From positions 127,412,001 through 127,476,000 of the forward strand of contig NW_024704742.1 of the NCBI RefSeq assembly GCF_018977255.1: a stretch of DNA of 64,000 bases. Reading direction: 5' to 3'. Below the pieces are notes generated by a model, which was given only the letters and a program-made list of their open reading frames with translations, ran no database searches and was not told the origin of the DNA. The translations under genes were made by a program, and so were the position numbers. Each line of letters starts with the position of its first letter. Positions within the stretch are counted from its first letter, which is position 1. The DNA is from Callorhinchus milii. Its lineage: Eukaryota. Of the stretch, positions 14,335 to 57,261 are shown one piece after another.

Positions 14335-14502
14335 TCATTCATTTTCTTTATTTTTCTTCATTTCCTTGTAATTTTTTCTGTTCTCCTCTGGGTATGTCAC
14401 TGTATTTAATATCAATTTATAGATGGATTTGTTGTTTGTAGTTAACAGCATAAACACAGTTGTGGAAAGACAGAAAGGCCAGGTCCCTGCAGGCAATCCA
14501 AC
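14335..14502 (-). CDS. slc14a2: UT last coding exon ([55 protein letters not shown]), single copy
   Basis: Acceptor ttttttag|GTT, TGA at 14335-14337; LPxxTWPF and VTYPEEN motifs. Confidence 0.95.
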
Positions 14503-29500: not shown

Positions 29501-32500
29501 GTTTGAGAATTAATGATACAATGGTTTATTTAATATACCAGGGTTTTTGCTTGCCGCTTTTAAAATAGATAAATGATTTACTGTATACTCCTGAAAAATT
29601 AATAGGTTAAATGCATAGTAGCCTTACTTTTACATTCCAAGTTAACTAATATATAAGGTTTAAATTAACGTCAATGCCATTTCTTTCTCCATGATTTCTT
29701 TGTTACATGGCTATTGAAACACCAGGATTAGCTGGGACATTCAATTGTATAGTCTATATATATATATATATACACATACATTATATTTACTGTAAGGAGT
29801 ACAGGAAACTTAGCAGAAATTATTATTTAACGCTATTTATTTTCTTGACACTCCTATAATGTGCATGGGTGTTTGCCACTTACTGCTGAATTGAATTTAA
29901 ATCATGCTTTTTGTTTTGCTAACTTGCCAGTTCACCTCATTAACAACAACTTGGATTTATATGGCGCCCTCCACGCCGGACGGCGTCTCAGAGCGCTTCA
30001 CAGTAACGGATCCCGGGTCCGAGCCAGGGGGAGGGGGAGGAAGGTGACCAAAGGCGCAGTCGAAAAGAAAGGTCTTCAGCAGAGACCTGAAAATGGGGTT
30101 CCAGAGCCTCGGGGCATTGTGGCTGAAGGCACGGCGCCGAGGGTGGAGCGGAGGACTCGGGGGACGAGGAGGAGGTCAGACCCGGAGGAATGAAGGCAAC
30201 GGATACTGTTTTGAGGAGAGAGGAGGTCAGAGAGGTCGGGGGGTGCAGAGGAGTGCAGGGACTTGAATACAAGGGTGAGAATCTTGAAATCGATCCTCTC
30301 TGGGATAGACAGCCAGTGCAGTCTGGCAAGGACTGGGGTGATCGGGGAGTGGAGGTTGGTGCGGGTAAGAATGCAGGTGACAGAGTTTTGAATGATTTGG
30401 ATTTTATGGATGGTAGTGGATGGGAGACTGGTGAGGAGGGCGTTAGAGTAGTCCAGCCGAGAGGTGACAAAGGCATAGACCGGGGTTTCAGCAGCTTTTG
30501 GAGAGAGGTATTGGCGGAGACGGGTGATGCGTCGGAGGTGGAAGAAAGCAGTGCTGGTGAGGGATTGGATGGGGGGAGGAAGAATAATTGGGGGTCGAAC
30601 CTGATGCCTAGGTTGCGTATGGGTTCGGAGAGTTTTAGTGGGAGGTCACTTAGGTGGAGAAGGTGAGAGCCGTGAGATTTTAGATGTTGACGAGAGCCTT
30701 TCACTTTGGACCTGTTGGCAACACTGCATATTGCCATCATAATTTATGTGCAGGGTCTAACTTGCAGGTTGTGTTAACTGTGTTTAATATATCTTGAGTG
30801 CAGAAGGAATTGCAGGTGCTTTAAAAAAAGTGATTAATAATCAATGAAAAGGATCACAGACCCGGACCATTGGTTTAGTTATGAATCATTTTGTTTAACT
30901 CCATCTCCTTGAGCTTCCTAATTTATAATGTATTCCTAATCTGCCGATATTATAGTCAAAGTATGCTGAGGTACCTTTCCTGAATTTAATTCAATCTGCA
31001 ATAGTTCTGCACACTTTCAGTTTATTTAGTTATGGAGAGGCAAACCTGATTTTGTCCTATGTCTATTTAAAGCAGCCATGAAATTTATGGTTGATACTGC
31101 AAACGTTAGATGGATGTGAAGGGAAAAGGGAGTGTGATTACAAATGTATTTTACATTGAACATTGCTGCTGACATTTTTAAAGCAAGCTTTTAATGATTA
31201 GTAATACAGTACTAACTTACCACTGACATCATGTTCATCAGTGCTTCTCCTAAGTAAGCACAGAAAATTGCTATTGAGGAAAAAGAAACAGGAAAACATT
31301 GTGTTTAGTAAACTTGAAGCAGTTTTTAGAAAAATAATTATCATGAAAATGACTGTATTCTCTGTAACATCACAATTGGCACTAGCCAGTTCCAGGTTGA
31401 AATCTTGGTACGTCCATTCAGACTTTCATCTTTTCAAAGTCAATAATGCAAATACCATGCCTGAAAACAATTCTTACCCGTTTCTAAATAGGCGTGCATT
31501 CTGTTGGTGCCAAACGTACCTCTGAATCAGTAGGTTGTGGGTTGAAGCTCCTCATTGGTACATTTAACTCATAATCTAAGATGTCACTGCAGTGCAGTGC
31601 TAGGGACATATTACACTATCAGAGATGTCATCCATCAGATGAGATATTAAACCAAGATGTTATCCTGTGTGAAGAGCTCTATATAAATGCGAGTTCTTGT
31701 TGATGCTGTAACCCAAGGTCCGCTCTGCCAGTTCAGGTGAATATTAAAGATTCCATTACACTATTTGAAAAGAGAATGGGGTATCTCCCACTGTTGTGGT
31801 CAACAGGGCCCAGGTAAACTGGGCATTTATTTTACGTCAGTTTGTGGGACACTGCTATGCGCAAATTGGCTGTTACAGTCGCCTACAAACACATAGTCAC
31901 TATACATTACAGTGAATCTTGTGAAGCACTTTGAGATGTTTCAATGACACAAAAAGGTACTCCATAACATGCAAGAATTCTAATGCAATCGTGATAACAG
32001 GATTCAGATGATCCATATTTTAAAACATACCACACATTATTGACAGGATATGGGTTTCCCATGTCAATGCATAAAACACTCCTCCGATAGCACTGCAAGC
32101 CAGAACGCAATTATAGCTCCATATTCCATCATAAATTTTCTTGAATGGTGAAGCCAGTGATAATCCTGAAAGGTAAATTGATTTAGTAAAATATGTAGCT
32201 TCTACACAATTACAACAACAGCTTACATTTATACTGTGCCCTTCATGTAGGGTAGTGTCCCGGAGTGCTTTACAAGTAAGTAGATACTTCTGTACTGTTT
32301 CAATGAGAGTGTGCCTGATGTTTCAGCAATCTGAGATGCTACCCCACATGAAAGGTGCTATATATATCAAGTTGTTGTGTAATTATTTAGTAATCTAATG
32401 TACTAACCAAATTATCTTTTAAAATTTTATATTCTATATATTGTAGTACAATACATAATATAATAAAAAGTATATATTCTTTTAGATATTGGTAAACTAT

Positions 32501-35500
32501 ATATTATGGCACAACACTTTATGTAATATACTAAAAAATAAACTTACTGATATTATAGATAGTTTTTATTTAATACTGTTCAGTGAGCTCTGATCTGCTT
32601 CACATCTCCCGCCTCGCCCGCCCCACCATTGGCAGGTGGGCCTTCTGTCACACTGCCCCCACCCTCTGGAACTCCAGCCCACAGTCCCTCCGTCTCGCCC
32701 CCTCCCTTGCCTCCTTCAAGACCCATCTCAAGACCATCCTTTTCAAACATGCTTTTGATCACTCTCCTTTCCCCCCTGACCTCCAGCCTCCCCAATCCCA
32801 ACCCCCAGTTCGGGTCCGAAACACTGACTGTTCAGCGCCTTGCGACGTCTTCCTGACGTGAAAGGCACTATACAAATATAGTTTTGTTGTTGAAACCAAA
32901 GTCATATTGACGTCTATTGAATATTAACTGCAAATAACCAGTTAACTTGTTATTTTGTTTTTAAACAGCACACTTTAACAAAAGAGATTTATTTTGTGTT
33001 CTCTGCTTGCATTCTAATCTGTAAATGACAAATTATTTTGTGACACCTGTCATTGAACAGCAAAGGCAAATCAGCTGTTGTACTGGATTGTACCACACCG
33101 TGTCACTGGTGGTACATTTAATGTTTGCAAGTCCATGGAGAAATAATTTTTTGTCTTTTTTTGTATAAGATCATCACCATTAGCAAAGCGGAGGGATTGA
33201 GGGCGAGTCTTCGGAAAAGATAATTTTGTTGCTTTGCAAAAATGAACTCAGTGGTGCCACAGTAAAATAAGAGTTTGCAATATCACTGGAGGATTTCATC
33301 TCTGCGGTGTGTTGACCAGTTTTTCAAACCGTACCAATGAATGGATTATGTAGATGAGATGGTGATTTTTGATGCTTTGCTGGGATTCAGCAACTACTTG
33401 CCTGTAGCAAGCAGGAATGTAGCATCTGGATGCAGCGACATTGCTATGCAGTTTTAGCTGGTTAGACCAGCAGTACCCCAACACACACTCTGGAGTCCCC
33501 AAGCCTTGGCTCTTGCTAATCTGCACCTAATAAACTGGTATCAGGTAAGCAGGATGTGTCCCACCCAGGAAAGAGTGCATAATTCCATTCCAATAAATAT
33601 CTTGGGAACTTCCCGGTATTGGTGAGATGCACGGAACTCTTAATTTGGTTTGGATACTCCTTATCACAGTGTTGGTTTCTGCAGACGTCAGACACCTGGC
33701 TCAACCCTACAAAATAATGATTCATTCAGGCTAATGCAATTATTGAGGTAAGTTTAAGATACGTATTTAATTATACCTGCTAGAATGCCAACGCAAGATC
33801 CGATTGCAGCATGTAGACATATGATCGGAGATGAGATAGCTAACGCAGCAAGGAAAATGCCACCAGTCCAGGGATTGTCACAGCCGTACACCTGTCCAAC
33901 ACCCACTGGAATAGCTCGTAGAAGCTGAATAAATATAAAATGTTTGGACATCATGTGATTTTCAAGAATATGAAAGTTGCTTTCACAAATATGTAATAAG
34001 CAATTAATGTTATTAATGTATCAATGTAAAGTAAATTGACTGTATATTTTTGTGGGTGAAATGCACAACTGATGTAAAGCCTAAACCTTTGCAGGCATTA
34101 ATCAGGGAGCAGAATAGAAATTACGTAGATAAGCAGAAATAATAGCAAAATGTGGCTCAGCTAACTTGGGCTTGCTGTTCGTTCCCCCACCCTCTCCAGA
34201 TCACTATGAGTGGCCGAACCTTCAGTTCCTACACCCTAACCTATGGAACTCTGTCCCTCTTGCACTCCTCTCTCTTTGTATCTTTAAATTCCACCTCAAA
34301 TCCTACCTCTTCAACCTTGTCTGCAGGCTACCTCCCACTCCCTCCTTTCCTTTGCTTGGCATCCCACCCCATCCCTGCACAGTGCTCCTAGACATTACCC
34401 AATGTGAAGAGCGCTATAGAAATGCAATTTGCTATAGTTGTTTAATTTTCCTTACCATTAGAATGCTGAGATCTGGCCAGGTGATGTTTGGGGCTGTGGT
34501 CATGGGTTGAATAAGAACCTGAGGGAAATGCTGATTGTAGTGTCCAGTTGCTGCCATGTAGAGACCCACAGATATATTAAAAGGCAATGTGAAAACAGGC
34601 AAATCCCACCGTCCCATCACGGAGGCCAAGGCACTTGAAATAATAGGGCTGTAAAGGAAAATGGTCTGTGACACAAATATTATCATTAAAGAGAAGTTTC
34701 CACAGATAAAAACAGTTGCACATAATTTGCCTTGTTTTATATTTCAATTTAAGAGTAGCCCATATTTTTTAGCAGTTATATTTTGTTTTCCCTCAAGTCC
34801 AAAGGGGACATTGAACTGTATGTTGGACAGAGTGTTTGTTTTCATGACGGCATAGTATTCTCAAGTGCAATTGTATCATTTTTATATCTTTTTCAATCTT
34901 TAATCATTGTATTTTATTACTGTGCACTTTCTAATTATTATTATTAAGCCAGACTGGCTCGGTGGTAGATCTCTTGTCTCTAGGTCAGAAGGTTGTGGGT
35001 TCAAGCCCCACGTTGGAACTTGAACACACATAGACTAAGCTTACAGTCCAATGTGTTGCATTGTTAGAGGTGCCGTCCTTCAGATGAAACGTTAAATCAA
35101 GGTCTCGCCTACCTGTTCATGTGGACGCTAAAGATTCCATGCCACTATTCGAAAAGAGAAGAGAGTTTCTCCTGCTGCCCTGGCCAACAATCTCCCAAAT
35201 AAAAAAACAAACATTATTCACTTCATGGTTGTTTGTGAGTCATTGCTGTGCCAAATTGTCTGCTGCGTTCGCACACAAATGCACAATTCATAGTAAATCC
35301 TGTGAAGCCCTTTGAGACATCCTCTCAACATGAAAGGTGTTATACCAAATCCAATGATTCCTATTTTTTTCAAGCAATACCTCATTATACTGCCCACTTG
35401 TTCCCGCACAATCCCTCCCCATCTCACCCTCCACGCACACACTTACACATCCCCAACTAATTTCCCATCCATTTACATTTTAGAACATGTAGGATACGAA

Positions 35501-38500
35501 ATGAACAGGAAAATGTGAGCATTTAACTTTAGACTTGGAGTTAGTGAGATAATGAAGGTGAGTAGTTGTGACCAGGAATTAAGCATTGAGAGCAGGAATA
35601 GTACAGCATTTTACTGATTGAGAGCAATGCCAGGCATCTTCAAATGGAGGAGAGGATAATCTATTTTTTCTTACTTTGAAGAATTAACCTGGGATAACTT
35701 TATCATATCATTAAATTATTACACATGTTTCAGTGAAGTCTTTCTGTCATTAACTTACTGGAGTATAATACTTGAACATCTCTAATCTTATGACTCATTT
35801 GTGTTAGAGTTGAAATCACTGGTTGCTCTTTGCAGAATAAAAAGGTTGAACTTGCAGTGTTTTATAACCATTTCCTGTGAGTTATCTAGGCTGACACTGC
35901 AATGAGGTAATGAGTACTGTCATTCGGATGAGAATCTAAACCGGGGTCAGTCCTGTCTGCCTGTTCAGGTGGATGCTAAAGATCCCACGAAACTGTTTGA
36001 AAAGAGAAGAGAGTTTCTTCTCATGATATAGCAAACCAACCCAGAGATAAAATTGTTTCATTCAATTGATAGCTGTTTGTGGCATATTGCTGTGAGTGAA
36101 TTGGATGCAAGGTTCGCCTAAAAGTACAGTCACTGCACAGTAAAAATCATGTGAAAGCACTTTGAGATGTGATAAGATCCCATAACAAATGTAAGTTTTT
36201 TTTTAATCTCTAGGGTGCCCATAGTTTTTAGGGCTGAATGGCTTTCCTCTGTGTCCAAAATTTCTATGGTTTGAAGATTTCCTGTTTAGCAAATTGCTCT
36301 TCTCTTACAAACATTCTCTCCCTATTTTCTTCCCTTTGGACTTTGCATAAAAGGGATTTCTTGTTCCAGTTTAATCAACCTATTCATTAATTTTGGAGCA
36401 TGCCTATGTAGCTTGCAGCTTTCTTTAGAACAATTAGTATTCACAGTTTGTGCCTGTACTGAAAGAAAAGTACTGAAGAACACAGTGCACTATTAAACAT
36501 CAAATGCCCTCCTCACCAGTCTCACCAGCTCCACTATCAACAAAATCAAACTAATCCCAAACTCTGCCATCTGCATACACACCTGCACTAAACCCCTGTA
36601 CCACCATCACCCACTTCTAGTCAGACTCCACTGGCTCCCCATCACCGAATGGATTGATTCACACTCTTTTTCAAATTCCTTCATGCCCTGACACCTCCCT
36701 TCCTTTCCTTCCCCAACTTCAGGTCATGCCTGAAGACCTTCCTCTTTGACCGTGCCTACAGTCACCAGCCTCCTCCCCCGGCATCGTGCTCCTGCATTAT
36801 CTAGCGCTCTTGCACGAGGGCTGCTATATATATGCAAGTTGTTGTTTCTAACAGATCATATAGAAATATTGCAATTTATTTTACTTTTCAATCCATTTAC
36901 TTCTATTTTTTAATTCTTTACGTGTATACTCTTGGTGTAAAAGGTAAAGCAGAAGAATGATTTTCTCAGGATAAAGACTTACTTTCCATTCATACAATTC
37001 CTCTACAATTCCTTTGCAGAAGGAACACACTTTTATATCTCTATAAAGTTACTCTATTATTAATCCTTTCTAAAGAGGAAACATTAGTTAGAATATAGAT
37101 ATCAACAATCCCCAGGCGGTTATTTAAACTGCAGTTAATTTTGTGGTCAGACCATTTGCACAGGTTGACTGATCATGTGGTTTTCCTTTTATTTCCCTTC
37201 TACTTAGATCTGAGTTTATGGAACATTCCCCAGGATGCAAACCATTCTTGTTGATTTAACGTTTCCTTGAGTGTCTCCAAATCACTGTTTTATGAATCTG
37301 GTCCCCAGAGTAAACTCGAGACATAATTCATAGACACATAGATAAATTGAAGATTGAAGATAAATATAGAATATAATGTGTCTGTTAAATTAATTACGAT
37401 CAAACTAATAATTTCAAAGTCCTTATTCAAATTCAATCTAAATCTCAGGCTGTTACGCATCTATAATAGTTAATTAATAATCCTTGCATTTGATATAGCG
37501 CCTTATCACATCTTCAAGAAGTTTCAAAGGTCTTCCCAGAATACATTGTAAAGTGAATTGACTGTATATTTTATGGACGTTACAGGTAGTTATGATGCCA
37601 CCAGCATTTACGTTTATTTATTATTTGGTTTTTTATTTGTCGTCTGATAACATTTTATTTTTTCCTTTGAACCATTTGATAAGAGGTGTGTGCCCTTATC
37701 ATTGTGATTCCTGCCTGAATCATTAAGCTATTGTATTCTTATGCTCCACCCGCTCCAGCCAACAGTAATAAAGGGAGAAAGGTAGATATTTTACGGTTGA
37801 ATACAGAAATTTCACTTCTCAATGAGCATAGAGTGAATGCTTGAGAAATAATTGTCTTCATTTATTTTTCTCTCAGTTACAGTAGCCACTCGCTGTAACT
37901 GAGAGAAAGTTCACTTAAAAGGCACAGTAGTTCATTGGCCCTTGAAGCAAGATTTAATTATCATTTGGGAAGTCAGAATAGAGAGAAGCCAAAACTACAT
38001 TCGAGACGATTACACTCTTGAACACTCAGATTTTTTTTTCCATTTGAGAATACTGTGTTAAAGTTCAACATGCAACGACTCTATTGCTGTGTAACACTAT
38101 CACTATTGCCGCGGATACACCCCAATACACAAAGGGCACGCAGATCTGTGCCAGGTGGGCAGAACCTGGCACGACAACATAAAACAATATGCACAGTATT
38201 TCAATTTTCTTATGCATACACAGAAACCATTTCTACTACAGCACTAATACCAAACTCATGCTAAAATGTGGAGCATAGCCTGGTTCTGAAACTGTATCCT
38301 GAGGTCATTTCAGGAATGGAGTTAATGCCAAGATCAGAGACCACATCACAGACCGGCTGCTTTTACAGATTTGAAAAATAAAATTTATACTTTCTTGACC
38401 TATTGGAGATTCAAGAAGTCTAAATACATCTTTCAATGTTATTAAAGAGTCAGGTGTTTACTCGACTGACTCTCAAAAATATTACCAGATTAATAGCTGT

Positions 38501-41500
38501 TCAGCGTTGGTTTGACCACATGTGTAGTTTCATCAGTTGTGCAGAAATTTGAGTTTATACAAATATTCTAATATTGGAATCTATTATTACATGCAATTAC
38601 CTCTCCCCAGCCACCAAGACACTCATCTACACCTTTAATTTGTGCAGGTTCAATAGTGCCAATGCTTTGCTTGTTGGAATTAGGAAGTAATATTAATCCT
38701 TGATTCCAGGTTCACAGCTGTTCTGACCAATTGGTTGTCAGATCTGGATGAGAGCTAACTTTCTCCAGCTGAATGTCGACAAGACAGTCTTCTGCTTGGC
38801 TACTGTCAGCGCCTTCTCACTTCAGGTGTTGACAGCATCAATCTCTGTGGATGCACACTCCACCCTGTGGAACCAGTGTTGTACCTCACTATCTTGTTTG
38901 ATTCTCAACTGTCCTTACACCTCACATCCTATGAGGATAGGCTGAATAAACTAGGGCTATATTCTCTAGAATACAGAAGAATTAGGGACGATCTTATTGA
39001 AACATATAAGATTCTTAAAGGGCACTGAGGGTCTGTTTCCCCTGGGAGGAGAATCTATAACCAGGGGTCACCGTCTTAAAATTAAGGGTCAGCCTTTTAG
39101 AACAGAGTTGAGGAAACATTTCTTCACTCAGAGGGTAGTGAATTTATGGAATTCACTACCCCAGAAGGCTGTAGATGCTCAGTCCTTGAACATCTTCAAG
39201 GCTGAGACTGATAGATTTTTTNAAAAAATAGAGGGATTAGGGGATATGGGGATAGGGCAGGTAATTAGAGTTAGGTCTGAAGATCAACCATGATCTTATC
39301 AAATGGCAGAGCAGGCTCGAGGGGCCGAATGGCCTACTTCTGCTCCTAATTCTTACATTCTTATGTTCTTATCCACGCTCTTACCCACTCAGCTTTCCTC
39401 TACCTCCCAACATTGCTGACCTCCACCACAACCTCTTCCCTTAGGTTGCTGAGACCCTAATTCATGCATTCATCATATCCAGGCCAAATCACACCAACGT
39501 TCTGCTCACCGGACTGCACAATTCTTCCCTTCACAAGCTGCAGACTATCAAGAACTCTGCAGATTGTGTCCTTTCCCACACCAGGCTCTGTGAGCCTATC
39601 ACCCCCATCCTCGCCCGCCTCCACTGGTTCCACATTCTCCAGCAGATCGAGGTCAAGATCCTCATCCTAAACTTGCACCACCCAACCTCTGCAATGTTCT
39701 CAAACCCTAACAACACAGCTGCTGCCTTCACTCAGTGGGCACAGTACTGGTTCATGTCCTCCACCTTACGCATCCCACAATGGATGGTCGGGCTATCTGC
39801 CCCCACTCTCTGGAACTCCATCCCAGAGTCCTTACAACTCACATCTTTCCTCGCTTCCTTCAAAATTGCCTCAAAATCTTCCTCTTTCACTGCACCTTTA
39901 GTCACCTTTCCCCTCCCCTCTTGGCCCAACAGCCCTAGCTATAGATTGCAGGAAGGTACAGGCAGATAGACATGTAAGTGGAATAGGCAAATTTGTGAGA
40001 AAGGGTTGTACATAGAAAAAGGTTAAGTGTTCCGTTTTGACAGGTGGAATTCTGAATAAAATGGAGGAACCTGCAGATTGGGAGTACGAATACATAGCTC
40101 ATTAACGGTAGGTCCAACCTTCACTCCGAGGAGATGCTGGATTTCCTTGAATCCAAAATCAAGGGAATCCGCTCCGCAGTTACTCCCCCTCCAACTTCCA
40201 CCCACTCCCCACCCCTTCCCTCCCACACTCCGACTCCTACCTATCCTCCCCTACACACCTTCGAACCCTCTGTCACCAAGCTTATCCTGTCCCTGAAACC
40301 CACCACCTGCTCCCTTGACCCCATCCCCACTCCACTCCTTATCTCCCAGCTCCACCTCCTTGCCCCACTTCTCACAGACATCATCAACCTGTCCCTCTCC
40401 TCTGGCTCTGTTCCCTTTCCCCTAAAAACTGCCACCATCACTCCCACTTTGAAAAAACCCTCCCTTGATGCGTCGCAGCTATCAAGCTACCGGCCCATCT
40501 CCAACCTCCCTTTCCTGTCCAAGGTTCTCGAAAGAGTTGTCGCCTCCCAGCTGTGCTCTTTCCTCTCCACCTATGCATTATTCGAACCCCTTCAGTCGGG
40601 TTTCCGTGCTGCCTGTAGCACGGAAACCGCCCTGGTCAAGGTCACCAATGACATCTTGACCATCTGCGACCAGGGCTCCCTCTGCCTCCTCGTCCTCCTC
40701 GACCTATCGGCCGCATTCGATACGGTCGACCACGCTATCCTCCTCCACCGCTTGTCCTCCCACCTCAACCTTCAAGGCCCTGTCCTTCAGTGGTTTAGGT
40801 CGTACCTCTCCCACCGTCTTCATTTTGTTTCCACAAATGGCTTTTCCTCCGGGCCCCGCACTGTGTTGTGTGGTGTTCCTCAGGGCTCTGTCCTCGGTCC
40901 CATCCTCTTCACCCTCTATATGCTCCCCTTTGGTGACATCATCCGCAGACATGGGGTTAACTTCCACATGTATGCGGATGACACCCAACTCTACCTTTCC
41001 TCCTCTACCCTCAACTCCACGACCACCGATGTCCTGACAGCCTGCCTGTCTGACATTGAGTCCTGGACGAGAGACAACTTTCTTCAGCTCAACGTGCGCA
41101 AAACTGAGGCCCTCCTGATTGGCTCGAGTCAGCGCCTCCGCACCTCAGGCGCTGACAGCATCAGCATCCAAGACTGCAGTCTCCACCTCTCAAAGCCGGT
41201 CATGAACCTTGGGGTTCTGTTTGATCCTGAGCTGTCCTTTCTTCCTCATATCCGCGCCACAACTGGCACCGCCTTCCATCACCTCCGAAACATCGCCAGA
41301 CTACGGCACTACTTCACCCCTCACGCTGCTGAAACTCTGGTCCACGCCTTTATCACCTCAGGGCTGTACTATGGGAACTCTCTCCTCACCGGCCTTCACG
41401 GCACCTCCCTCCACAAGCTGCAGGTCATTCAGAACTCTGCAGCTCGTGTACTGTCCCGCACCAGGCTTCGGGACCACATCACTCCCACCCTCGCTCGCCT

Positions 41501-44500
41501 CCACTGGCTCCCCATCCCCCAGAGGATCGAATTCAAGATCCTCATCCTCACCTACAAGGCCATTCACGGCCTCGCTCCCTCCTACCTCTCTGACCTACTA
41601 TCCCCTAGTTACCTGCCCGTACACTCTGTTCCTCTGGCTCCGGTCTGCTCCACATCCCCCACCCCAACCGCCCTACCAGCGGTGGCCGGGACTTCAGCCT
41701 CTCAGCCCGGAGGCTCTGGAACTCCATCCCCCAGTGCCTTCGCCGCCTCCTCCCTTTCCTCCTTCAAGGCCAGTCTCAAGACCTTTCTCTTTGACCGTGC
41801 CTTCAGCTCCCCTCTCGACTCTCTACCCCCTCCTTGCTCCCTCCCTTCCCTCACCCTGACCATTTCCCCCCTGCTCGGGTCCTGACCCAACTGTCCAGCA
41901 CCTTAGGACGTCCTCCGGACGTGAAAGGCTCTCTATAAATGAAATCTTGTTGTTGTTGTAGGATTGCAAATAGAGAAGGCTGTTGAAAGGGCAAACAGGA
42001 TTCTGGGTTTCACGTATAGAGCCATGCACAGCTTTGACCCTTCAACTAGATTCTCAGTTAAGTAGTCACTTTTATTGTGCCCATCACAGATAGCAGAGCG
42101 GTAGAAGACATCAATGACAAGGGATAAATTTAACAGAAATACTTGGGGGAAATTATACGCAGGTGAGTTTCAGATTTCCATTGCCCAATGGTACATTGCG
42201 TTAATCTTGTGACAGAAGGTGAAGAATGACTCTTTATTTGAATTTCTGATGTAAGGGAAAACCACAGAGCACAGATATTAAAGTGTGTGTATGTGTGTGG
42301 TGTGTGTTTACACTTATGAAGCTATTGAGATTCCTTGAAATATAAATAGCATTATTTCTACTTATATTTCCGTGAAATATAAATAGCATCATGTAACTCT
42401 AGTTTGCTGGTCTGACTCTGTTTCACGGTCAACGACATTCATAAGTATTTCGGGGATCTGATTTCAGAGTTAAGGCATTAAGTATGAATAAGTTCAGGCC
42501 AGAGCTTAATAGATTTTTGATGAAAGAAGCAAGGAAGGGTTTAAGAGGTGGAACAATTTGATCCCAGTGATGTAGATTGGATTGGTCTTTTTAGTTCTGT
42601 ACATCCTGCTTTCCTAGGTTTCGTCCCTTTTGTGATTAGTTGCTCCAATGTTTGTGTATCTCTTGTAGTTTGCAAATTATTCTTAAATATTAATGTATTG
42701 TAGGACAGAAAATAAAATAGGAGCCTCAATCATAAAATACCTAAAATCTGGTTCCTATCTTTTCTTAATTTTAACCACAAACTTTACTCAGTTACTATAA
42801 TTTTAACATTCAATCAACTCCGTCCACTGAGAACTGGAATTGGGACCAGAAAGCTCTGATTTCAAATACTGGTTTGTCCAGTCAATCCTTCACGTTTTGA
42901 GGTTAATAAAATTAGTTTTTTGTCCAAAAATAGCTCATTGGGATGGCATTTAGAAATTACAGCACTGGAAGAGGTCTCTCAAGTGTAGGCATATCCTTAA
43001 AGCCCCAACAGTCAATAACAACAAAATTAAATTTATAGAGCGCCTTTCACGTCGGCAGGACGTCCCAAAGCGCTGAACAGTCAGCTGTCGGGGCCCGAGC
43101 ATGGAGGAGGGGTGGTATAGGGGTGAGGGAAGGCAGAGAGGTGGGAGGGAGACCAAAGGCACGGTCAAAGAGAAGGGTCTTGAGACCGGCCTTGAAGGAT
43201 GCGAGGGAGGAAATGAGGCGAAGGGACCGTGGGATGGAGTTCCAGAGTGTGGGGGCAGAGAGGCTGAAAGCCCGGCTACCGATGGTAGGGCGGCTCGGGT
43301 GGGAGTCATGGAGTAGGCCGGAGCCTGGTGAATGGAGGGAGCGGGCAATTTTGGTAGGGAGTCATCAGGTCAGAGAGGTAGGAGGGGGCAAGGCCATGGA
43401 TGGCCTTAAAGGTGAGGACCAGCTTCTTGAACTCGATCCTCTGGGGGTTGGGGAGACAGTGGAGTTGGGCGAGGGTGGGAGTGATAGGGTCGCGGAGCCT
43501 GGTGCGTGAGAGTACATGAGCTGCAGATTTTTGGATGATCTGCAGCTTGTGAAGGGAAGAGTTGGGAAGGCCGATGAAGAAGGAGTTTTCGTAATCAAGC
43601 CTTGATGTGATGAATGCGTGGGTGAGGGTTTCGGCAGCCTGAAGCAGTGGCGGAGTCTGGCAATGTTGCAGAGGTGGTGGTAGGCACTGCCAGTTATGGC
43701 GCGAATGGGTGGGAGAAAGGATAGTTCAGGGTAAAATAAGACACCCAGGTTCCTGACTGGCTTAGTGAGGTTGAGTGTGCAGCCATGGAGGCTGATACTG
43801 CCAGCGCCTGAGGTGTGGAGGCGCTGGTGCGAGCCAATCAGGAGGGTCTTGGTCTTGCTGACGTTGAGTTGGAGAAAGTTGGCCCTCATCCAGGACTTGA
43901 TGTCGGAAGGACCTCAGTTGTCCTGGAGTTCAGGGTGGAGGCAGAGAGGTAAAGTTGGGTGTCATCCGCATACATATGGAAATTTACCCCATGTCTGCGG
44001 ATGATGTCACCAAGGGGGAGCATATAGAGGGTGAAGAGGAGGGGACCGAGGACAGAGCCCTGAGGGACACCACACGAGACGATGCGGGGGCCGGAGGAGA
44101 AACCGTTTGCCGTGATGAAGTGGAGGTGGTGTGAAAGGTAGGACCTGAACCAGTCAAGGACAGAACCTTGAAGGTTGAGGTGGGAGGTCAAGGTGGCCTT
44201 AATTGGTTTAATATCACATGGCAGTTTCAACAATAATGTGTTTTTTGTTAATAAACGCCAAAACAGAATCAGTAATAATAATAATCCTTGCATTTGATAT
44301 AGCCCTTACCATGTCTCAAAGCATTTCACAGAATATATTGTAAAGTGGATTGGCACAGTTGTGTCCCACAAACAATCATGGATTGAGTGACCAATTTTTT
44401 TTTGAGGGATTATTACCCCTGAAAAGTAATCTGCCAATTGAACTGCTAGGTAAACAGAAGCGTGTGGAGTAAGGAAACTTGCCTAAGGTTTGGTCCCGCC

Positions 44501-47500
44501 CGGGATTCGAACTCAGGTCCTTGCCCTTGCAAGGCAATCATGCTAACCACTACACTACAGGACTCCACAATTAGTTAATTATAATTAATTCATAATTAAT
44601 GAATTTGATGCCTACGATTCCCACATTTACTAAATTGTATCAAATTTGGAGAATAACCATTTTCTTAGCATGCATTAAGTTCCAAAAAAGGATTTCAAAA
44701 TTAATGTTCTATTCTCTGTGTCGTTTTGTTTTCAAAATGTTCCTGGATTGAAATAGTTCAGCGTAGAACATTCTATGCTTACATTGTAACTAAGTTTGAG
44801 GTAACTATTCATGAAAATAAAGTCATGTCAAATGGAAAAGTCAACATACCATCCCATCGACATGATGATCACAGCCAGTATCAGCCACCAATACCAGTCT
44901 CCTTTGTTAGAAAATACAGCCATCAGAAGACCAACCAGGATGCCGTTGTATCCACAAAGCCCTGCTGCAATAGCAGACCTGAAAATAATAATAATTAATA
45001 ATTATTGAATAGTCTTTCTGTGCCGGTTAGTGCGCTGGCCTCGCAAGCGAGAGGACCCGGATTTGATTCCCGGGCAGGGCGAAACCTTAGGCAAGTTTCC
45101 TTACGCCACACACACGCCTCTGTTTACCTAACAGTAAGTAGGAACCCACTTGTTGTAATCAATTGGCCTTCAAAAATAAATCCCTTCAAAATTAATAATA
45201 GTAATAATTTGGTTACTCAATCCTCGACTGTTTGTGGGACACTGCTGTGCGCAATTGGCTGCCGCATTTCACCCACAAAATATACAGTTAAATCACTTTA
45301 CAGTACATCCTGTGAAGCCTTTGAGATGTCTCGAAGATGTGATAAGGAACTATATCAAATGCAAGGATTATTATCATGTCTTCGAGATGTCTCAAAGCGC
45401 TTCACAAAATATAAAAAATAAAAACCATAAGATGTGAAGAATAAAGTTACAGAATGCTAATGGTTAACAACTGAGCAGATTTACCTTTTCCGACATCCAA
45501 GATATTTTTCAGACAAGTTTCATAGTGAATTGAATCACAAAGTATTGCTGTTTGACTTGGTTAGCACTTTGGGACACCCTCCCAACATGAAAAGTGTTAC
45601 ATACATGTAAATTTATATTGTATTGTAGGTTGATCCTGAGTTTTAGAGAAATGAGCTATGAGGAAGAATGAGATACATTAGGACTCTTCAACATTGAAAA
45701 GATGTCTCCTCATCTTTTCTAGGCTCCCAGCGCCTTGGGGCGTCGTCCCGATGTGAAATGCGCTATACAAATATAATTTATTGTTGTTGTTTTCCTCATA
45801 TTCTTTCATATTTCTCCTTCCAAGATGTTTAATTTTTTTTTAAAAGTTAAGATGGATTCTGCCTCAACTATAGTTCCAGGAAGGGCATTACACCCATAGC
45901 GTAGACACATTTCCCCTAACCATCCTTTCTCTCTTGGTAATTATCTTAAATCTATGCCCTTTAGGTATTGACTCATTAACTAAGTTATTAAAACCACACG
46001 TAATTTTACAAAGCTTCATCAGGTCTTCTTTCAAGTTTCACTGTTCCAGGGAAAATAGTTATTTCAGTCTTTCCTCAAAAATGAAATCTTCCATCCCTGT
46101 TATCCTGCTGAATCTCCTCTGCACCCTCTCTATAGTCTTGATATCCTTCCTCTAGTGAGGTACTCAAACCACAGTACAACTGCAGCCTAACTAATGATTT
46201 ATGCAGACTTGCACTGTAAACAGTAAATTTATGATAGATCTCAAGATCAAGATCTTGATAATGGCAACCCGGTCTATTAAACACTTTGTCAGATTGTGAC
46301 TTTCCGCATCCATCAGACACCCAACTGACCATAAATAATCAAACAATAAATAGTATTTATTTTTATCACTTTTTGCAGCCAAGTCTATTCATGGTGAAAT
46401 TACCATATAGTGTACGTACCTGTTTTGACTGAGAATAAGTGCTGCTAAAGTTGAGGAAACTGTTCCCACAACGCCGTTCAGTGCCCACCATGGATTCTGT
46501 ACAATCAGCCCGATCAAAATAACAAGTCCACTCAGTGGGTTGTTGACAAACATCACCTGAGCAGCTCCTCGTAAGATCCAGTCAAGAAACTGAAAGATGC
46601 AATTTTGCTCTGCAATGTTTCCAGAAAGAAATGAAACATATTATATGCTATGTTTACCGTGAGATGTGTCTATACTTCTGTGTCTATACCTCCCAACGTC
46701 CTCCCGACGTGAAAGGCACACTATAAATGTAATTTTATTGTTGTTGTTGTTGTCAGGGTAATTAATACTGAAGAGATGAGCGCATCTCTAAATCCATCTG
46801 ATTTCTGAATTGTCACAAGGAAAATATCGAATTCAGTCAAGTCTTGAATTTGATAACAATTTAGCCTAGATTGTCTCACGTGTCCGCAAAGTATCGCCTT
46901 ATCTTGAATCCATTGCATATATAACAATAGTAATATTAATGATTATATATAAGAATCATCCTTGCATAGCGCCTTATCATATTGAAAAATCTCAAAGCGC
47001 TTCAAAGGATTTTACTGTTGTATGGAGCGCCTGGCTATTTATAGGCAAACCCTGCTTTAACATAGGATTATGTGGAGTCCTGTAGCTCAGTGGTTAGAGC
47101 ACTCGCTTTGCAAGCGAGAGACCTGAGTTCAATTCCAGGCAGGGCGAAACCTTGGGCAAGTTTCCTTACTCCACACGCCTAATAATAATCCCTCCAAAAA
47201 CCAAAAATAATAATAAATTGGTCATTTTCAATCTACGACTGTTTGTGGGACATTGCTGTGCGCAATTGGCTGCCGCGTTCGCCCACAAATATACAGTCAA
47301 TTCACTTTGCAGTGTGTTCTGTGAAGCGCTTTGGGACGTCCTCCCGACGTGAAAAGCGCTATATCAAATGCAAGGATTATTATTATTATTATTAATTATG
47401 TTGGTTTACCAGTCCTTGTGGAGTCCTGTGGCATGGTGGTTAGAGCACTTGCCTCGAAAGCAAGAGGATCCAGGTTTGATTCCCAGGAGGGATCAAACCT

Positions 47501-48113
47501 TAGGCAAGTTTCCTTACTCCACATGCCTCTGTTTACCTAGCAGTAATTAGGAACCTGATTTCTAAACGATTGGCAGATTTTTTTTATGGTCACTCAATCC
47601 ATGATTATTTGTGGGACCATGCTGTTCGCAATTAACTGCTGCATTTCGCTCATAAAATGCATAGTCAATTCACTTTGTGGTATATTCTATGAAGCGCTTT
47701 GAGACATCTCAATGACGTGATAAAGTGCTATATCAAATGCAAGGATTATATATGTAATGCTTATACTTTTAAGGAGTCTTTATACTGCTTCACTATCTCT
47801 CTCTCAACATTTTGATCTAATCCTTTTGAGGTACTTCATTGAAAATATATTTCCAATAACTTCCATTATGATCATACTGTATTTCTGATGAAGATTAACA
47901 CCCAGAAACCTAGTTTGCTCTTCCTGATGCTAATCAACCTCTTGTGCAATTCCAACACATTATTTAAGATATTCTCTTACCTTTAATCCAGTCACCAAAT
48001 TCTCTCATGTCACCAGAAATGTAGCCAATTCCTCTGAAAAAAGTTTTCTTGAGGAGATTGCCGTGTTTCAGGGTTACCTTCTCTTGAATCATTTCTGCTT
48101 TCTGTTGCTCCAT
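14335..48113 (-). CDS. slc14a2: Facilitative urea transporter (SLC14A/UT family), spliced CDS of 8 exons, 381 aa: join(complement 47981-48113, 46420-46609, 44850-44978, 34456-34648, 33777-33924, 32031-32165, 31221-31270, 14335-14502)
   Basis: All exons have GT-AG boundaries, the phases are consistent and the total is 1146 nt. The product has UT signatures [40 protein letters not shown], the NIT sequon, [24 protein letters not shown] and VTYPEENR. Internal exon sizes 190/129/193/148/135/50 match the vertebrate UT exon pattern as I recall it. The family call is firm; the a1/a2 label is tentative. Confidence 0.95.
15020..15985 (-). mobile_element. CR1-clade LINE 3' part (RT C-terminus); partial copies at 22475-22720 and 29182-29430
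   Basis: [49 protein letters not shown] motifs. Confidence 0.92.
16495..17290 (-). mobile_element. Older L2 fragment; array copies at 23235-23990 and 29942-30697
   Basis: L2 RT C-terminal homology and stem-loop tail. Confidence 0.88.
17810..17859 (-). CDS. slc14a2: Duplicate of UT exon 7 (copy A)
   Basis: Appears identical to 31221-31270. Confidence 0.85.
18617..18751 (-). CDS. slc14a2: Duplicate of UT exon 6 (copy A)
   Basis: Appears identical to 32031-32165. Confidence 0.85.
19167..19476 (+). mobile_element. L2 3' fragment; array copy at 32582-32891
   Basis: TIGRWAF...LWNS...FKTHLKT and L2 tail. Confidence 0.85.
20572..20719 (-). CDS. slc14a2: Duplicate of UT exon 5 (copy A)
   Basis: Same translation as 33777-33924. 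Confidence 0.85.
21267..21459 (-). CDS. slc14a2: Duplicate of UT exon 4 (copy A)
   Basis: Appears identical to 34456-34648; only 24 nt of native upstream intron remain before the junction into L2 at 21483/21484. Confidence 0.85.
21484..22474 (+). mobile_element. 3' part of the same L2 insertion (copy B)
   Basis: Matches 28191-29181, including the same 3' flank tacctcaattagg. Confidence 0.95.
24512..24561 (-). CDS. slc14a2: Duplicate of UT exon 7 (copy B)
   Basis: Appears identical to 31221-31270. Confidence 0.85.
25322..25456 (-). CDS. slc14a2: Duplicate of UT exon 6 (copy B)
   Basis: Appears identical to 32031-32165, with intact splice sites. Confidence 0.85.
25708..29181 (+). mobile_element. 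Near full-length young L2-clade LINE (APE endonuclease + RT), TSD tacctc (25702-25707 / 29182-29187), (GTT)n tail
   Basis: EN motifs GLQNVRS, ALTETWL, YRPP, GDFN, LDLV, SDH; RT motifs [39 protein letters not shown]. The frame is open from 25787 to about 27250, with one frameshift, then open to 29028. Confidence 0.96.
31221..31270 (-). CDS. slc14a2: UT coding exon 7 ([16 protein letters not shown]), copy C
   Basis: 50 nt, caatag| and |gtaagt. Confidence 0.92.
32031..32165 (-). CDS. slc14a2: UT coding exon 6 ([44 protein letters not shown]), copy C
   Basis: 135 nt, tttcag| and |gtatgt. Confidence 0.93.
33777..33924 (-). CDS. slc14a2: UT coding exon 5 ([22 protein letters not shown]...GILA), copy C
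   Basis: 148 nt, ttcag| and |gtataa. Confidence 0.95.
34456..34648 (-). CDS. slc14a2: UT coding exon 4 ([24 protein letters not shown]...[11 protein letters not shown]), copy C
   Basis: 193 nt, tttacag| and |gtaagg; [11 protein letters not shown] motif. Confidence 0.95.
34945..35350 (+). mobile_element. Second, older Deu-domain SINE family; other copies at 640-890 (-), 18095-18550, 24800-25255, 31508-31962 (+), 35880-36190 (+), 63170-63525 (-), 63630-63800 (+)
   Basis: tggctc.gtggtag...gaaggttgtgggttcaagcccc...gaggtgccgtccttc.gatga.acgttaaa and gctgtg...aaattgg.tgc, as in DeuSINEs (AmnSINE/SacSINE type). Confidence 0.8.
38930..39370 (+). mobile_element. CR1 3' end nested inside a degenerate L2 (38720-38929 and 39371-39925)
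   Basis: TRGHRLK...[17 protein letters not shown]; tail ttcttacattcttatgttctt; the L2 resumes in register, with a possible TSD atcc. Confidence 0.85.
40112..41959 (+). mobile_element. 5'-truncated L2, slightly older, RT with late frameshifts
   Basis: ORF 40134-41885 is homologous to 27283-29028. Confidence 0.95.
43015..44195 (-). mobile_element. Degenerate L2 RT fragment
   Basis: [13 protein letters not shown] and YADDTQ in ORF 43886-44293; L2 tail at 43015-43080. Confidence 0.92.
44272..44568 (-). mobile_element. tRNA-Ala SINE copy
   Basis: Reverse-complement head ...ctacaggactccac. Confidence 0.85.
44850..44978 (-). CDS. slc14a2: UT coding exon 3 ([42 protein letters not shown])
   Basis: 129 nt, ttttcag| and |gtatgt. 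Confidence 0.95.
45020..45376 (+). mobile_element. tRNA-Ala SINE copy next to the UT exon 3 acceptor
   Basis: ctcgcaagcgagagg...gcaagtttccttac...aaggattatt. Confidence 0.85.
46420..46609 (-). CDS. slc14a2: UT coding exon 2 ([62 protein letters not shown])
   Basis: 190 nt, tgcag| and |gtacgt; hand-translated, missed by the ORF track. Confidence 0.95.
47072..47395 (+). mobile_element. tRNA-Ala(TGC)-derived SINE with Deu-like domain and L2-type tail (young, short subtype)
   Basis: A box TAGCTCAGTGG, anticodon arm CTCGC-TTTGCAA-GCGAG, B box GAGTTCAATTCC, GCTGTGCGCAATTGGCTGCCGCG, tail stem-loop, (ATT)n. Confidence 0.92.
47418..47750 (+). mobile_element. tRNA-Ala SINE copy (long subtype), tandem to 47072
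   Basis: Family head and tail. Confidence 0.88.
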
Positions 48114-48128
48114 GAATGGATATATTTC
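47981..48128 (-). CDS. slc14a2: UT first main coding exon ([49 protein letters not shown]); ATG at 48113
   Basis: Acceptor ttttttcag|GAA, donor AAAG|gtaaga; contains the conserved GYxxGDMxEFGDW motif. Confidence 0.93.
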
Positions 48129-48345
48129 CTGAAAAAATAGAAGATCAAGTTCCATTCGTGAGTTCAAAATCTATAAGAGTTTATTATAACTCAAGTGAAA
48201 TGAAATATATATTCTTAAATTAGTTTCAAATATTGAGTATCTTCTGAACATGGCAATAAACCACACTTTAAAGTATCTGTCTTAACTCAGTTAAATATAA
48301 ACATATAATATATCTCAAATGTATCTTCTTTGGAAAACTGCATAC

Positions 48346-48415
48346 CTGGGCAAGTTCAATATCAACCATTCAGGCTTCTTGTCTTCATTCTCTAACATAA
48401 ACTGCTAAACTGCTG
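48346..48415 (-). other. Candidate small 5' exon of UT; in-frame ATG at 48369 gives MVDIELAQ spliced to EIYPFMEQ (394-aa form)
   Basis: Donor CCCAG|gtatgc at 48346/48345 is phase 0 relative to the 48128 acceptor. It lies just downstream of a TATA-like CATAAAAG (48436-48443, minus strand). The 5' end is estimated. Confidence 0.55.
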
Positions 48416-48429
48416 CCAGTGAACTGATG

Positions 48430-48770
48430 AGTTTGCTTTTATGCAGTTGAAGTAAAATGTGTTAAATTCTAAAATAGATTGTTATCAAAACTGTGATGCT
48501 GTTTTTAACATTTTTGTTTAATGAGCGTGTAATTGCCTTTGCCTGGGGTGTTTTATGCACATGGCAAAATGTTTCACTTTCTTATCGATTAATAAATTAC
48601 TTATTCGGATATTTCTTAAATGAGCAGTTTGGGACCTTGGAAAGCTACAATGGCCTTCTCTCAGGAATGAACTAGAGAATTTTAAACTGACTCCAAATAT
48701 GTGACAGAGCATCTGGAGATAAAGCTACACAAGGGGTTCAAATTATTATCTTGATACCAAGTTTCTCACC
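48430..48770 (-). promoter_or_regulatory. Proximal UT promoter: TATA-like CATAAAAG (48436-48443), conserved core 48556-48604 (GATA, ATCGAT ONECUT-like, HNF1-like half sites), TonE-consensus TGGAAAGCTAC (48638-48648)
   Basis: Position upstream of the first exons; the same motifs are kept in the paralogous block at 53520-53860. Confidence 0.65.
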
Positions 48771-49329
48771 TTGAGCTGAAAAGAACTGACAAGATCATGA
48801 GTAATAAAGCAATTACTACTGATTATCAGTTTGAATTCTTGTCAAAAATATCTGGGAGTTAAATAGTAGCTCCACTTGCCTCACATAGCACTCACTCTAT
48901 TGTCAACAAACAGTGACATGGTTAGAAATCCTTCATTACTTTAAAAAGTCTAATTGTATATTCACTAAATACCTCTTCTATCTAATTCTGGTTATATTTC
49001 TGCTCTGTGTGTCATAGGAACATAGGAACAGGAGTAGGCCATTCAGCCCCTTGGCCTTTTCCACCATTATATTAAAATCATGGCTGATCTGTACCTCAAT
49101 TCTAGTTGTGTCAGTCTGGCTCAGTTGTTAGCTCTCTTACCTTAGATTTTCTATGGGAAATCTGACATCTGGCATTATTTGATGATTAATTGATGTCTGT
49201 TTGAAATTGAACTCTATATCGTGACAGATTTTATAATCACTACCATGACATTTTAAATACTGAAACGCAGGATGTGAGATCCCTCCAATAAATATGATGT
49301 ATTGAATTTTCCCTTTCTGCATAATAATA

Positions 49330-52900: not shown

Positions 52901-53149
52901 ATAACGTTTCCAATTTATCCCGTTCCAGTGTCCTTTTGTACTTCTTGTCTTTATCTCTTTGGCTCTTTCTTAATTGCCTTTTAGTTTTTAAAGGGATATC
53001 CTACAGAAATAGTGTTGTCTTCGTTAAGATGGTTTATTAGTTGCTTTGAAATTAGTCCTTTTTTCACCTTCACCTTTCCAAGACCCATTCTCAAACTGCT
53101 TGACCTGACCCTATGGAAATGATTCACTGCAAATATGTGACCAATGTAT

Positions 53150-53860
53150 TTAATTACCTTTGAGCCAATTCCCATGCAGAGATCTCTCCTGATATCTTCT
53201 TGCTTGATGGTTCCGTTGTGTTGTTTGTTTCCTGGTTTATGTTGTTCCATGTCTGGAGACTTCCCTTCTAGAAAAAATCAAATCAAGTTGCATTCAGCCT
53301 TTTTTTTGTGTCAGAAAACAAAATAGATTCCATTTTATGTTCATTGTTAATGCCACTTTTTTTTAACATATTACAAAAAGCCTCCCTGAAATTGAACAAA
53401 AAGATTTGTTTTTGCTACTTTGTCAGAAAGCAAAATATTTCTGGTCAAGTTTAAAATCAAAAGTTTAGGATCTTCTTGTTCCTTGGTTAAAGTAAACTGG
53501 TCAGAATTACAAGATGGTTTTGCTTTTATGCAGTATTAATGAACTGTGAAAAATTATATAACAGATCGTAATCAAGACTATAATACTGGTTTTAACATTT
53601 CTGAATATGTTATCAAGCCATCTCGGGTATTCTGTGCACATGACAAAATGTTTTACTTTCTTATCGATCAATAAATTACTTATGAAATTCATTGAATAAT
53701 TTGTTCCATGGAAAGTTACGATGGCCCTGTTCCAGGATTAAAAGAGAATGCTAAATTGATTTGCGGTCTGTTAAATATCAGAAACATATCTATCACCTTG
53801 ATATTTGGGAGATAAGTCACTCAGGGCCTCAAGGCTCTACTCTGATACCAAACTTCTCTT
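53150..53860 (-). pseudogene. Diverged duplicate of the UT 5' end: promoter plus paralogous exon 53158-53267 (MEQHKPGNKQHNGTIKQEDIRRDLCMGIGSK); relic or alternative first exon
   Basis: Colinear similarity with 47975-48770. The intron/acceptor gaatgcaacttgatttgattttttctag compares with gaatggaacttgatcttctattttttcag. The peptides share MEQxK....Q...T(I/L)K...GIG. It has an AAAG|gtaa donor, a TATA-like box, the core block and the TonE. Confidence 0.85.
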
Positions 53861-53919
53861 TTGTGCCAAAATGGCAAAGGCACAACTGATGGTGTGATTA
53901 ACCAATTTCCAGCATGGAG

Positions 53920-55272: not shown

Positions 55273-57261
55273 TACAATAGCAACCTATGCATTTTTTAAA
55301 AGCTGGTTAGACTCTAGCAGTACACCAAAGCACATTCCGGTAATTCCAAACCTTGGCTCTTTCCGATCTGTGCCTAATGCTCTCCAGAATTCCTCCGAAG
55401 AGTGTGCATCCCATTCCAAACACAGGAATTTCCATGTTTAGGTGGGATGCATGGTACTCTCAGTGTAGTTTAGATACTGATAAGCATGGTGATGGGTTTC
55501 CCCATATGTCAGATAACCCTCTGACCACAAAAAAATTAATCTGATTGCTGGTTCGGTTGAATGAGCTACCCAGGATCAAGGCAAGACCATACTTCTACCA
55601 CCCTCAGCCGTGTGAGACTGAGCTAAGCCAGTGTGACCTCTAGTTTGGGGATATTCAAATTTGAGGTCATCCGCCTTCTGGGGGTGGGGGGAGGAACTGA
55701 AGCGCTTTCAGTGAGATGGACACTCAACGCTGGATCAGGAGATCCGGAGGCCTGTGGAGCCAAGAAACTTACATGAATCAGCAGGAGCTGGTGGGGCACG
55801 AAGAGGCAGCTTGCTGAATACTGAATGGATAAATAGACAGAAGTGAGAGAGAACGTCTTCACTCCCACACAAGATCCTGTCAGCTCTCCTTGTCTCAGTG
55901 GCCGGAGACTCTCAGTGGCCGGTTACGAGAGGGAATTCGAATCGCTAGTGTTGGACTTCGGGAGCATGAGAGTAGCTAACCCTCACTATAGGAGGTAGAC
56001 CAGCCTCTGAGCTTTCGCTGTGCTCTGCAAACATTTTTATACAATATTGTCGATGCCCCGGGCAGGATGTTGAAGCCAGAATCAACAGAAGAGCTAGATA
56101 GTTAGTTTTCAGGATGTGAAAACGTCAAGTTAATCTTTGTTGCTTTTATGGTGGGATATTTATCTACATGGTTTGTTTTGGGGTTTATATTAAGCTTTTG
56201 ATTGGGTTAATGAGTAATTGTGAAATATACAGTCCTTGAGTTGACTAACCACCAGAGATTTTCAGGCTTTTATGTTTTTACTGGGAAAACCGAGCTGTAT
56301 AATAAGTTGTGTCAGGCTGGAATCGGAGGCAGCTCTTTAGAGTTAGGAAATGCAGCATAATAGTATGTTTCACACACAAAATCTACAGTTAATTAATTTT
56401 ACAGTATATTCTGTGAAGCCCTTTGAGGTTTCTTGATGATGTGATAAGGCACAATATCAAATGCAAGGATTTATATTGTGCAGCCAATAATTGCTATCCT
56501 TAACTACACTATTTGGTCATTTGGGGAAGAAAGGGAAACATCCAAATGATGTTAGAGAATATTATCTAGGTCATGAGATCTTAGGATAACAACACTGGGT
56601 AATCCTAAATGCTCCGAGACACTTCCCTGTGTGAATGGTGCTAGATAATTGCAAGTTGTTGTTATTGCAGTCATCCTTTTTATTAAAATAGAATTTTTTT
56701 CCTTCATGGATTATTTTCACTGGTCGGTAATCAGTGGGCATGAAATTAAAATAATCCCACTGTGTGCTTTGAGTTTCACAGAGCTACTGTGTTCGATATT
56801 CTGTTATGCTACTTGGATTCTTTTGCTCAACTGCATTGTCTACTGGTGTAAGAGGATAGAATTGCACTGTTAAGAACATAGGAATGCACATGACCGTATT
56901 GCAACTTACCCAGCCAGTGTCAAAATAAAATAAACAATCCTACGTTACTCTTGCTCTCACATCCACCTTGGTTTCTTCTCCAACTTAGTAATATCTAAGA
57001 TGCGTGTTCCTATGCTTGTGGTAACATTGAAAACACATATTGGATGCTAAACTGTGATTGTTGCAGTGGAGCTACTAGTTAGACTGGGACCATTTGCCAC
57101 AAGACCACTACAAGACCAACATCCTAGCGATGTCTCGGTGGGGCAAAAAGATTTAAGTGTTTTAGTACAACAAACTGGAGTTCTTTCATGTTTAGCTGTG
57201 GTCCACTATCCTCCAGCAGGTCTTGAAGTGAGAATCCGAAGAACCAACTCAGTCATAGGGT

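Follow-up and report, generated by a model that had tools for sequence, protein, structure and literature searches.

The UT-1 locus and its isoforms

The stretch of DNA analysed (64,000 nt, referred to here as the window) carries the efUT-1 locus of Callorhinchus milii. The 44 residues encoded by 47982-48113 matched one protein, P0001 (417 aa, Callorhinchus milii), with 100% identity. This protein is BAH58773.1, 'urea transporter alpha-long' (UniRef C4B715), in which 31 residues encoded by a copied exon are followed by EIYPF and then by the parent exon. The same cluster holds a short form, BAH58774.1 (P0002), which has 394 aa and starts with MVDIELAQ. Translation of a spliced model joining 53158 to 48128 and continuing at 46609 reproduced the first 143 residues of P0001 exactly, and the remaining exons of P0001 were located by tblastn. 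A spliced model of the short form matched P0002 over 120 residues exactly. The small first exon of the parent, with an ATG at 48369 and a phase-0 donor at 48346, encodes the MVDIELAQ of the 394-aa form and is thus more than untranslated sequence, a small correction to a preliminary description of this sequence.

The two cDNA records show that the locus yields both a 394-aa form beginning with MVDIELAQ and a 417-aa form beginning with the 31 copied residues, and that both have the same membrane domain. Pfam PF03253 was detected at residues 89-383 of P0001 with 356.5 bits (cut-off 25), which makes the protein a member of the SLC14/UT family. The 31-residue extension lies outside this domain, and the best PDB matches begin at residue 47 or later. 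The N-termini of urea transporters are cytoplasmic. The efUT variants described by Kakumura et al. in 2009 reportedly transport urea in oocytes. Since the 417-aa protein predicted from the genomic sequence is the product of a cDNA deposited in 2009, the isoform itself was already known. For elephant fish, the available text of PMC11430647 mentions 5' splice variants of efUT1 and 2 and attributes them to the 2009 study by Kakumura et al. (PMID 19559810).

Elsewhere in the window, large internal direct repeats (97-99.8% identity) were observed at 15738-34672, which hold extra, 100% identical copies of UT-1 exons: two exons are present twice and two others three times, and the cDNA proteins contain each of these four exons once. 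Several of the repeat ends fall in a dispersed repeat that is also found at 6153-7394 and 40113-41959. They reflect a segmental duplication of recent date or else an error in the assembly. Long degenerate simple repeats occupy 59426-61159, beyond the part of the window that was compared with the contigs described below.

Features of the UT-1 locus in the window, with the evidence for each
Feature	Position	Strand	Basis
Candidate promoter TATAAAAA box, just above first exon of long transcript	56034..56041	-	inferred; position
Non-coding first exon of long isoform; 5' end possibly further up	55773..56022	-	contig joint
Copied promoter region plus small first exon of short isoform, both ATG and donor of the exon being lost	53441..53870	-	alignment
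Copy of parent first intron, mostly decayed	53268..53440	-	shuffles, local alignment
Duplicated exon, 110 nt: 17 nt UTR and 31 codons, phase-0 donor	53158..53267	-	tblastn, contig
Intron start resembling parent second intron (47802-47868)	53089..53156	-	shuffles
Parent promoter region and small coding first exon, short isoform	48346..48780	-	spliced model, BAH58774.1
Exon 2 of the parent (148 nt; acceptor in phase 0, donor in phase 1), common to both isoforms	47981..48128	-	tblastn, contig
Remaining UT-1 exons (from 46420-46609 on), membrane domain	14338..46609	-	tblastn, Pfam PF03253

A duplicated 5' block upstream of UT-1

The region 53089-53870 (minus strand) is a colinear copy of 47802-48780 and lies about 5 kb upstream of it. 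Comparison of 52800-54300 with 47600-49200 by BLASTN gave 234 identities over 345 positions (E 2e-41), and the significance of each part was assessed by comparing its score with those of dinucleotide shuffles (300 or 2000 per part). The upstream region together with the small exon (53441-53870 versus 48346-48780) scored 246, compared with a shuffle maximum of 40 (0 of 300 shuffles), and the exon at 53158-53267 scored 57 against 47981-48128 (0 of 300 dinucleotide shuffles). Downstream of the copied exon, 53089-53156 matched the parent second intron at 47802-47868 with a score of 39, which none of 2000 shuffles reached and which was the highest among 223 tiles of the window; this match starts 111 bases into the parent intron. 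The colinearity of 53150-53860 with 47975-48770 noticed in the preliminary description was therefore borne out by BLASTN and by the shuffles, with significant alignment of the upstream region and small exon, the copied exon and the downstream intron, and the block reaches somewhat further, to about 53089. By these shuffle tests the copied exon and its flanks are homologous to an exon of the same gene, as in tandem exon duplication.

Between the matching parts, similarity of the copied first intron to the parent first intron was at chance level (16 of 300 shuffles reached the score), the parent-like remnant in a local alignment being about 27 columns that precede the acceptor. Similarity to the parent was likewise at chance level above 53870 (38 of 300 shuffles) and below 53085 (203 of 300). 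The duplication is partial, as had been suggested, in the sense that the 5' end of the gene is present as a copy; it was either partial from the outset or a whole copy that was later truncated. The reported loss of the donor of the small 5' exon was also seen (CCAG/AA at 53441 versus CCAG/GT at 48346), to which the loss of its ATG has to be added.

Re-phasing of the copied exon

The copied exon has its ATG at 53250 and supplies the first 31 residues of the long transporter. In its first 29 codons, 58 of 87 bases are identical to the parent exon, with a gap of one codon, and after the GGC codon there are 6 bases in the copy versus 43 in the parent, a net loss of 37. Through this loss of 37 coding bases after Gly-Ile-Gly, an exon of phase 0/1 has acquired a donor in phase 0, which matches the acceptor of the same phase at 48128. 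The limits of the exon, its AG and GT ends and the phase-0 donor at 53158 were as described previously. So were the consequences for splicing, in that a spliced model joining 53158 to 46609 is out of frame and meets a stop after 49 codons, and the in-frame joining of 53158 to 48128, with its 417-aa product, agrees with cDNA BAH58773.1, the X1 contig described below and the spliced model.

The route by which the 37 bases were lost is ambiguous because the similarity in the intron is offset by 111 bases. A deletion of 37 nt between TGGCT-like repeats, as originally proposed, is plausible, and a larger deletion combined with a new donor is also compatible with the alignments. That the old donor was kept is the simpler reading, and the original donor would most likely have been retained, as 9 of the 10 bases around the two donors match. 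The somewhat unlikely alternative is that the phase-0 donor is new and arose through a single deletion of about 148 bases extending from the exon into intron 2, or through activation of a cryptic donor, with the same isoform as the outcome. Such an origin would account for the position of the significant intron match, which begins at 47868, 111 bases into the parent intron and directly opposite 53156; moreover, donor consensus alone would give the AAGGTAA match, and the bases right after the copied donor resemble the missing YISGDM codons. Set against this, besides the agreement around the donors, are a global alignment that near the donor favours a 37-base gap after GGAATTGGC, and the poor agreement with the copy of the 7 bases preceding 47868, of which only 1 matches.

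At the other end of the exon, the copied acceptor (53262-53273) reads TAGAAG, with a second AG possible three bases on. Shark models include two exon 2 acceptors six bases apart (EQNPF or NPF).

Transcript structure and first exons

Assembled contigs from four public runs (X1-X4, two studies), which we guess to derive from RNA, were examined over 44800-59300. An 858-nt contig of X1 comprised 56022-55773, a 111-base piece ending at 53157/53158, 48127-47981, 46609-46418 and 44976-44850, joined at GT-AG boundaries and skipping 53268-55772. The joint 53158 to 48128, for which a search had been recommended, was therefore found, in one of the four runs (X1) among the joints listed for these presumed RNA contigs. 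The joint between 55773 and 53267 was present in X1 and X2, which come from two studies, and 53158 joined to 46609 did not occur among the joints listed for the four runs of contigs.

The first exon of the long transcript is situated 2.5 kb above the copied exon and is not part of the copied block. It showed no similarity to the promoter blocks (69 of 100 and 5 of 100 shuffles reached the score), and when translated it resembled none of six upstream peptides taken from elasmobranch models (scores 12-20). It contains one upstream ORF of 14 codons starting at 55967, and its junction with the copied exon creates an in-frame stop before MEQHK. The TATAAAAA box lies 19 bases above the end of the X1 contig, and the window has just one other exact copy of it on the minus strand; as a start site cannot be read from contigs, it is a candidate promoter element only.

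Because its first exon lies outside the copied block, the X1 contig does not use the copied promoter. Initiation of the long isoform near 53500, as envisaged earlier, was accordingly not supported by this contig, which comes from 55773-56022; minor use in other tissues is possible. The proposed two-promoter, two-N-terminus locus holds as far as two first exons and two N-termini are concerned, and is not supported with respect to a start at the copied promoter. The copied small exon has lost both its ATG and its donor, and in the contig a separate non-coding first exon is spliced to the copied acceptor. Depth of cover in X1 for the bin 53028-53511 was 134.4, both expected and seen, from the long contig and one repeat joint. 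For X2 it was 2.34 in the bin 48188-48671 versus 2.35 expected for 44 bases of contig 6, cover that would correspond to the first exon of the short isoform. The bin 53512-53995 had no cover in X1-X3 and a depth of 9.46 in X4, values that do not lend themselves to interpretation.

Conservation of the copied promoter

The copied promoter is 75.6% identical to the parent over 397 aligned columns. The best 50-column window had 47 matches, a value reached in 102 of 5000 permutations. A near-identical core (53635-53683 and 48556-48604) holds ATCGATAAG, for which these are the only two minus-strand occurrences and which resembles CUT-homeodomain and GATA sites. An intact CATAAAAGCAAA word is present at 53530 in the copied promoter.

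Whale shark and zebra shark are given synonymous rates of dS 0.061-0.111 over about 50 My in the available part of PMC13100897. By simple arithmetic these rates predict a distance of 0.5-0.9 over 2 x 421 My, compared with an observed non-coding distance between the copies of 0.30 (Jukes-Cantor, gaps excluded), a comparison in which the exclusion of gaps makes the copies look too similar, chimaeras may have a lower rate than sharks and gene conversion is possible. Taken together with the decay of the neighbouring intron, the low distance gives a hint that the copy has been under selection in a regulatory capacity, and the promoter core may have been retained as such an element.

Distribution and age of the copied exon

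UT-1 records were collected from 27 species of cartilaginous fish (database gene models; three Logan records were excluded from the count). The 31-residue exon preceded exon 2 in at least one record for 15 of the 27 species, namely the chimaera, ten sharks (Heterodontus, Heptranchias, two Scyliorhinus, Cetorhinus, Hemiscyllium, two Chiloscyllium, Stegostoma and Rhincodon), three rays and one skate (Rhinoraja). The Heptranchias model begins at an inner Met and includes only the last 16 residues of the exon. For the other 12 species no record had the exon, which in gene models is no evidence of loss. Several of the sharks and rays have an ETxPx stretch preceding the Met, like EIYPF in the parent. 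Among skate models with a similar upstream peptide, that of Rhinoraja (P0168) includes the copied exon and those of Leucoraja and Amblyraja (P0028, P0170) omit it; these models keep the frame with or without the exon, as a cassette exon would be expected to do.

Eleven exon peptides from the chimaera, sharks, rays and the skate aligned without gaps over the 31 residues, and length and frame of the exon were constant in 14 species. In all 14 species with the full exon, the score across lineages (chimaera/elasmobranch) was higher than that to the species' own exon 2. The copied exons had a mean score of 27.1 to UT-1 exon 2 (shuffled 17.9, maximum 19.2 of 100) and of 19.7 to UT-2 exon 2; for the chimaera copy alone, the two means did not differ in the direction expected (22.9 to UT-1 exon 2 versus 24.4 to UT-2 exon 2). 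Identity to the chimaera copy was 29-52%, compared with 28-59% for the ordinary UT-1 N-terminus and 78-85% for the core. In a tree built from 29 columns, a single branch set the copied exons apart, and its support was weak (76/66; 80% of bootstrap trees).

A search with a profile made from the 11 exon peptides, which is circular where these peptides themselves are concerned, recovered seven proteins among 7133 candidates, all of them from cartilaginous fish, and no other chimaera species turned up. Among the 187 proteins retrieved for the comparison, no domain under iE 1 came from a bony vertebrate, which is weak evidence of absence. The occurrence of the exon in gene models of sharks, rays and a skate had been missed in the preliminary description, as had the deposited cDNA. 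The split between chimaeras and sharks is placed at 421 Ma (interval 410-441) in the available part of PMC3692497. Judged from these sequences, the duplication is likely to predate that split, and selection may have preserved the exon for some 420 million years. We regard it as highly probable that the block represents a copied UT-1 5' end from which an exon is spliced in frame onto exon 2, yielding the 417-residue form already known, following a duplication that is likely to be older than the chimaera/shark split.

Among other histories, it is improbable that the block in the chimaera postdates the split, or has been renewed from the parent by gene conversion, and that the elasmobranch exon had a separate origin. 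The non-coding distance is lower than the shark rates of PMC13100897, as far as its text is available, would lead one to expect, and the support in the tree is weak. However, all copies are alike in length, truncation point and splice target, each of the 14 full-length exons is closer to its counterparts across the split than to its own exon 2, and decay of the copied intron 1 to chance level is more in keeping with a promoter part retained by selection than with a recent duplication. Slightly less probable again is derivation of the exon from the adjacent gene of UT-2 type, or from a third UT gene of the tandem that has since been lost, with subsequent capture by UT-1. UT-2 is apparently arranged in tandem with UT-1, as judged from adjacent accession numbers or locus tags and from fused models (P0006, P0126), and the chimaera copy scores about equally to the UT-1 and UT-2 exon 2 sets. 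This contrasts with the overall scores, which favour UT-1 exon 2, with the Gly-Ile-Gly end, which is a feature of UT-1, and with the non-coding flanks, which match the UT-1 promoter; furthermore, tblastn with P0001, P0125 and P0024 found neither a UT-2 exon nor any remnant of a downstream exon above 48200 in the window. That the block might be a decaying, untranscribed relic, as the preliminary description had allowed, is hardly credible. Loss of the ATG and donor from the copied small exon and decay of the copied intron 1 would agree with it, but for the exon it is refuted by cDNA BAH58773.1, by the spliced contig and by conservation in 14 other species, so that only the copied promoter could still be a relic.

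Relation to known urea transporter loci

The mammalian SLC14A2 (UT-A) locus likewise arose by duplication and has several isoforms and more than one promoter, and UT-A joins two whole transporter domains. At the present locus, in contrast, only the 5' end has been copied and a single membrane domain is made. In PDB, a 910-residue 'Urea transporter 2' chain was matched twice by P0001. Automatic models (P0006, P0126) fuse a second UT gene with UT-1 into two-domain proteins of 655-667 aa, which together with adjacent accession numbers in several species implies a tandem UT-2/UT-1 pair, of which UT-2 lies outside the window; this arrangement, known from automatic models only, is reminiscent of mammalian UT-A1.

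Tandem exon duplication is a source of alternative isoforms, and the copied exon resembles such cases in being an alternative coding exon of the same gene. It differs from the usual situation in that the copy is used in series before the parent and not in place of it, that the phase of its donor has changed, and that it has been captured by an unrelated first exon. The long and short UT-1 variants of elasmobranchs (stingray strUT-1/2, dogfish) are, as here, alternative isoforms of the orthologous gene. According to the available text of PMC5568229 and PMC11430647, however, the stingray and dogfish variants differ at the C-terminus, and N-terminal variation, which is what the exon described here produces, is mentioned there for the elephant fish only.

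The efUT-1 long variant (BAH58773.1) is the product of the transcript described here and does not differ from it as a protein. Three points go beyond that record: the extra exon originated as a copy of exon 2 with altered phase, it is preceded by a separate first exon, and gene models of elasmobranchs contain it too. As the transcript was already known, the main prediction of the preliminary description is confirmed, yet is not new. The literature searched, which reached few subscription papers and not the 2009 efUT report, gave no account of the duplication origin of the exon or of its presence in elasmobranchs; the isoform is thus known and its ancient origin by duplication apparently undescribed.

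Possible function and significance

The exon likely gives a second promoter access to UT-1, and this access may be at least as important as any regulatory or trafficking role of the peptide. The cytoplasmic N-terminus may alter regulation or trafficking, rather than the urea pore. Simple PKC, CK2 and PKA motifs were scanned in ten extensions and none was common to all.

The long forms of sharks have a calculated mass of 45.6-46.8 kDa. For dogfish UT-1, a Western band of 46 kDa versus a calculated mass of 43.4 kDa is reported in the available text of PMC11430647, which mentions glycosylation. The band is nearer to the mass of the extended form than to 43.4 kDa, and glycosylation is an equally possible cause; the single Squalus UT-1 record examined was without the copied exon.

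What appears to be new is the history of the exon: the copy acquired a phase in which it can be spliced in frame, its original first exon dropped out and another captured it, and it persisted. This persistence spans chimaeras, sharks, rays and skates, and no new kind of mechanism is involved. A more far-reaching proposal, which we consider doubtful, is that all cartilaginous fishes have an overlooked N-terminally extended UT-1 stemming from a duplication of Silurian age, in which the exon and the promoter core are both under selection, the one as a trafficking or regulatory tag and the other as either an enhancer or a third site of initiation. Two studies of elasmobranchs deal, in the text available, with C-terminal variants of sharks and rays only; the interpretation of their antibody, PCR and localisation data could be influenced by an N-terminal form. 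Urea retention is central to the osmoregulation of cartilaginous fishes; if the wider proposal were true, the exon would be a lineage-wide innovation tied to urea retention, and the extended form possibly a major form of UT-1.
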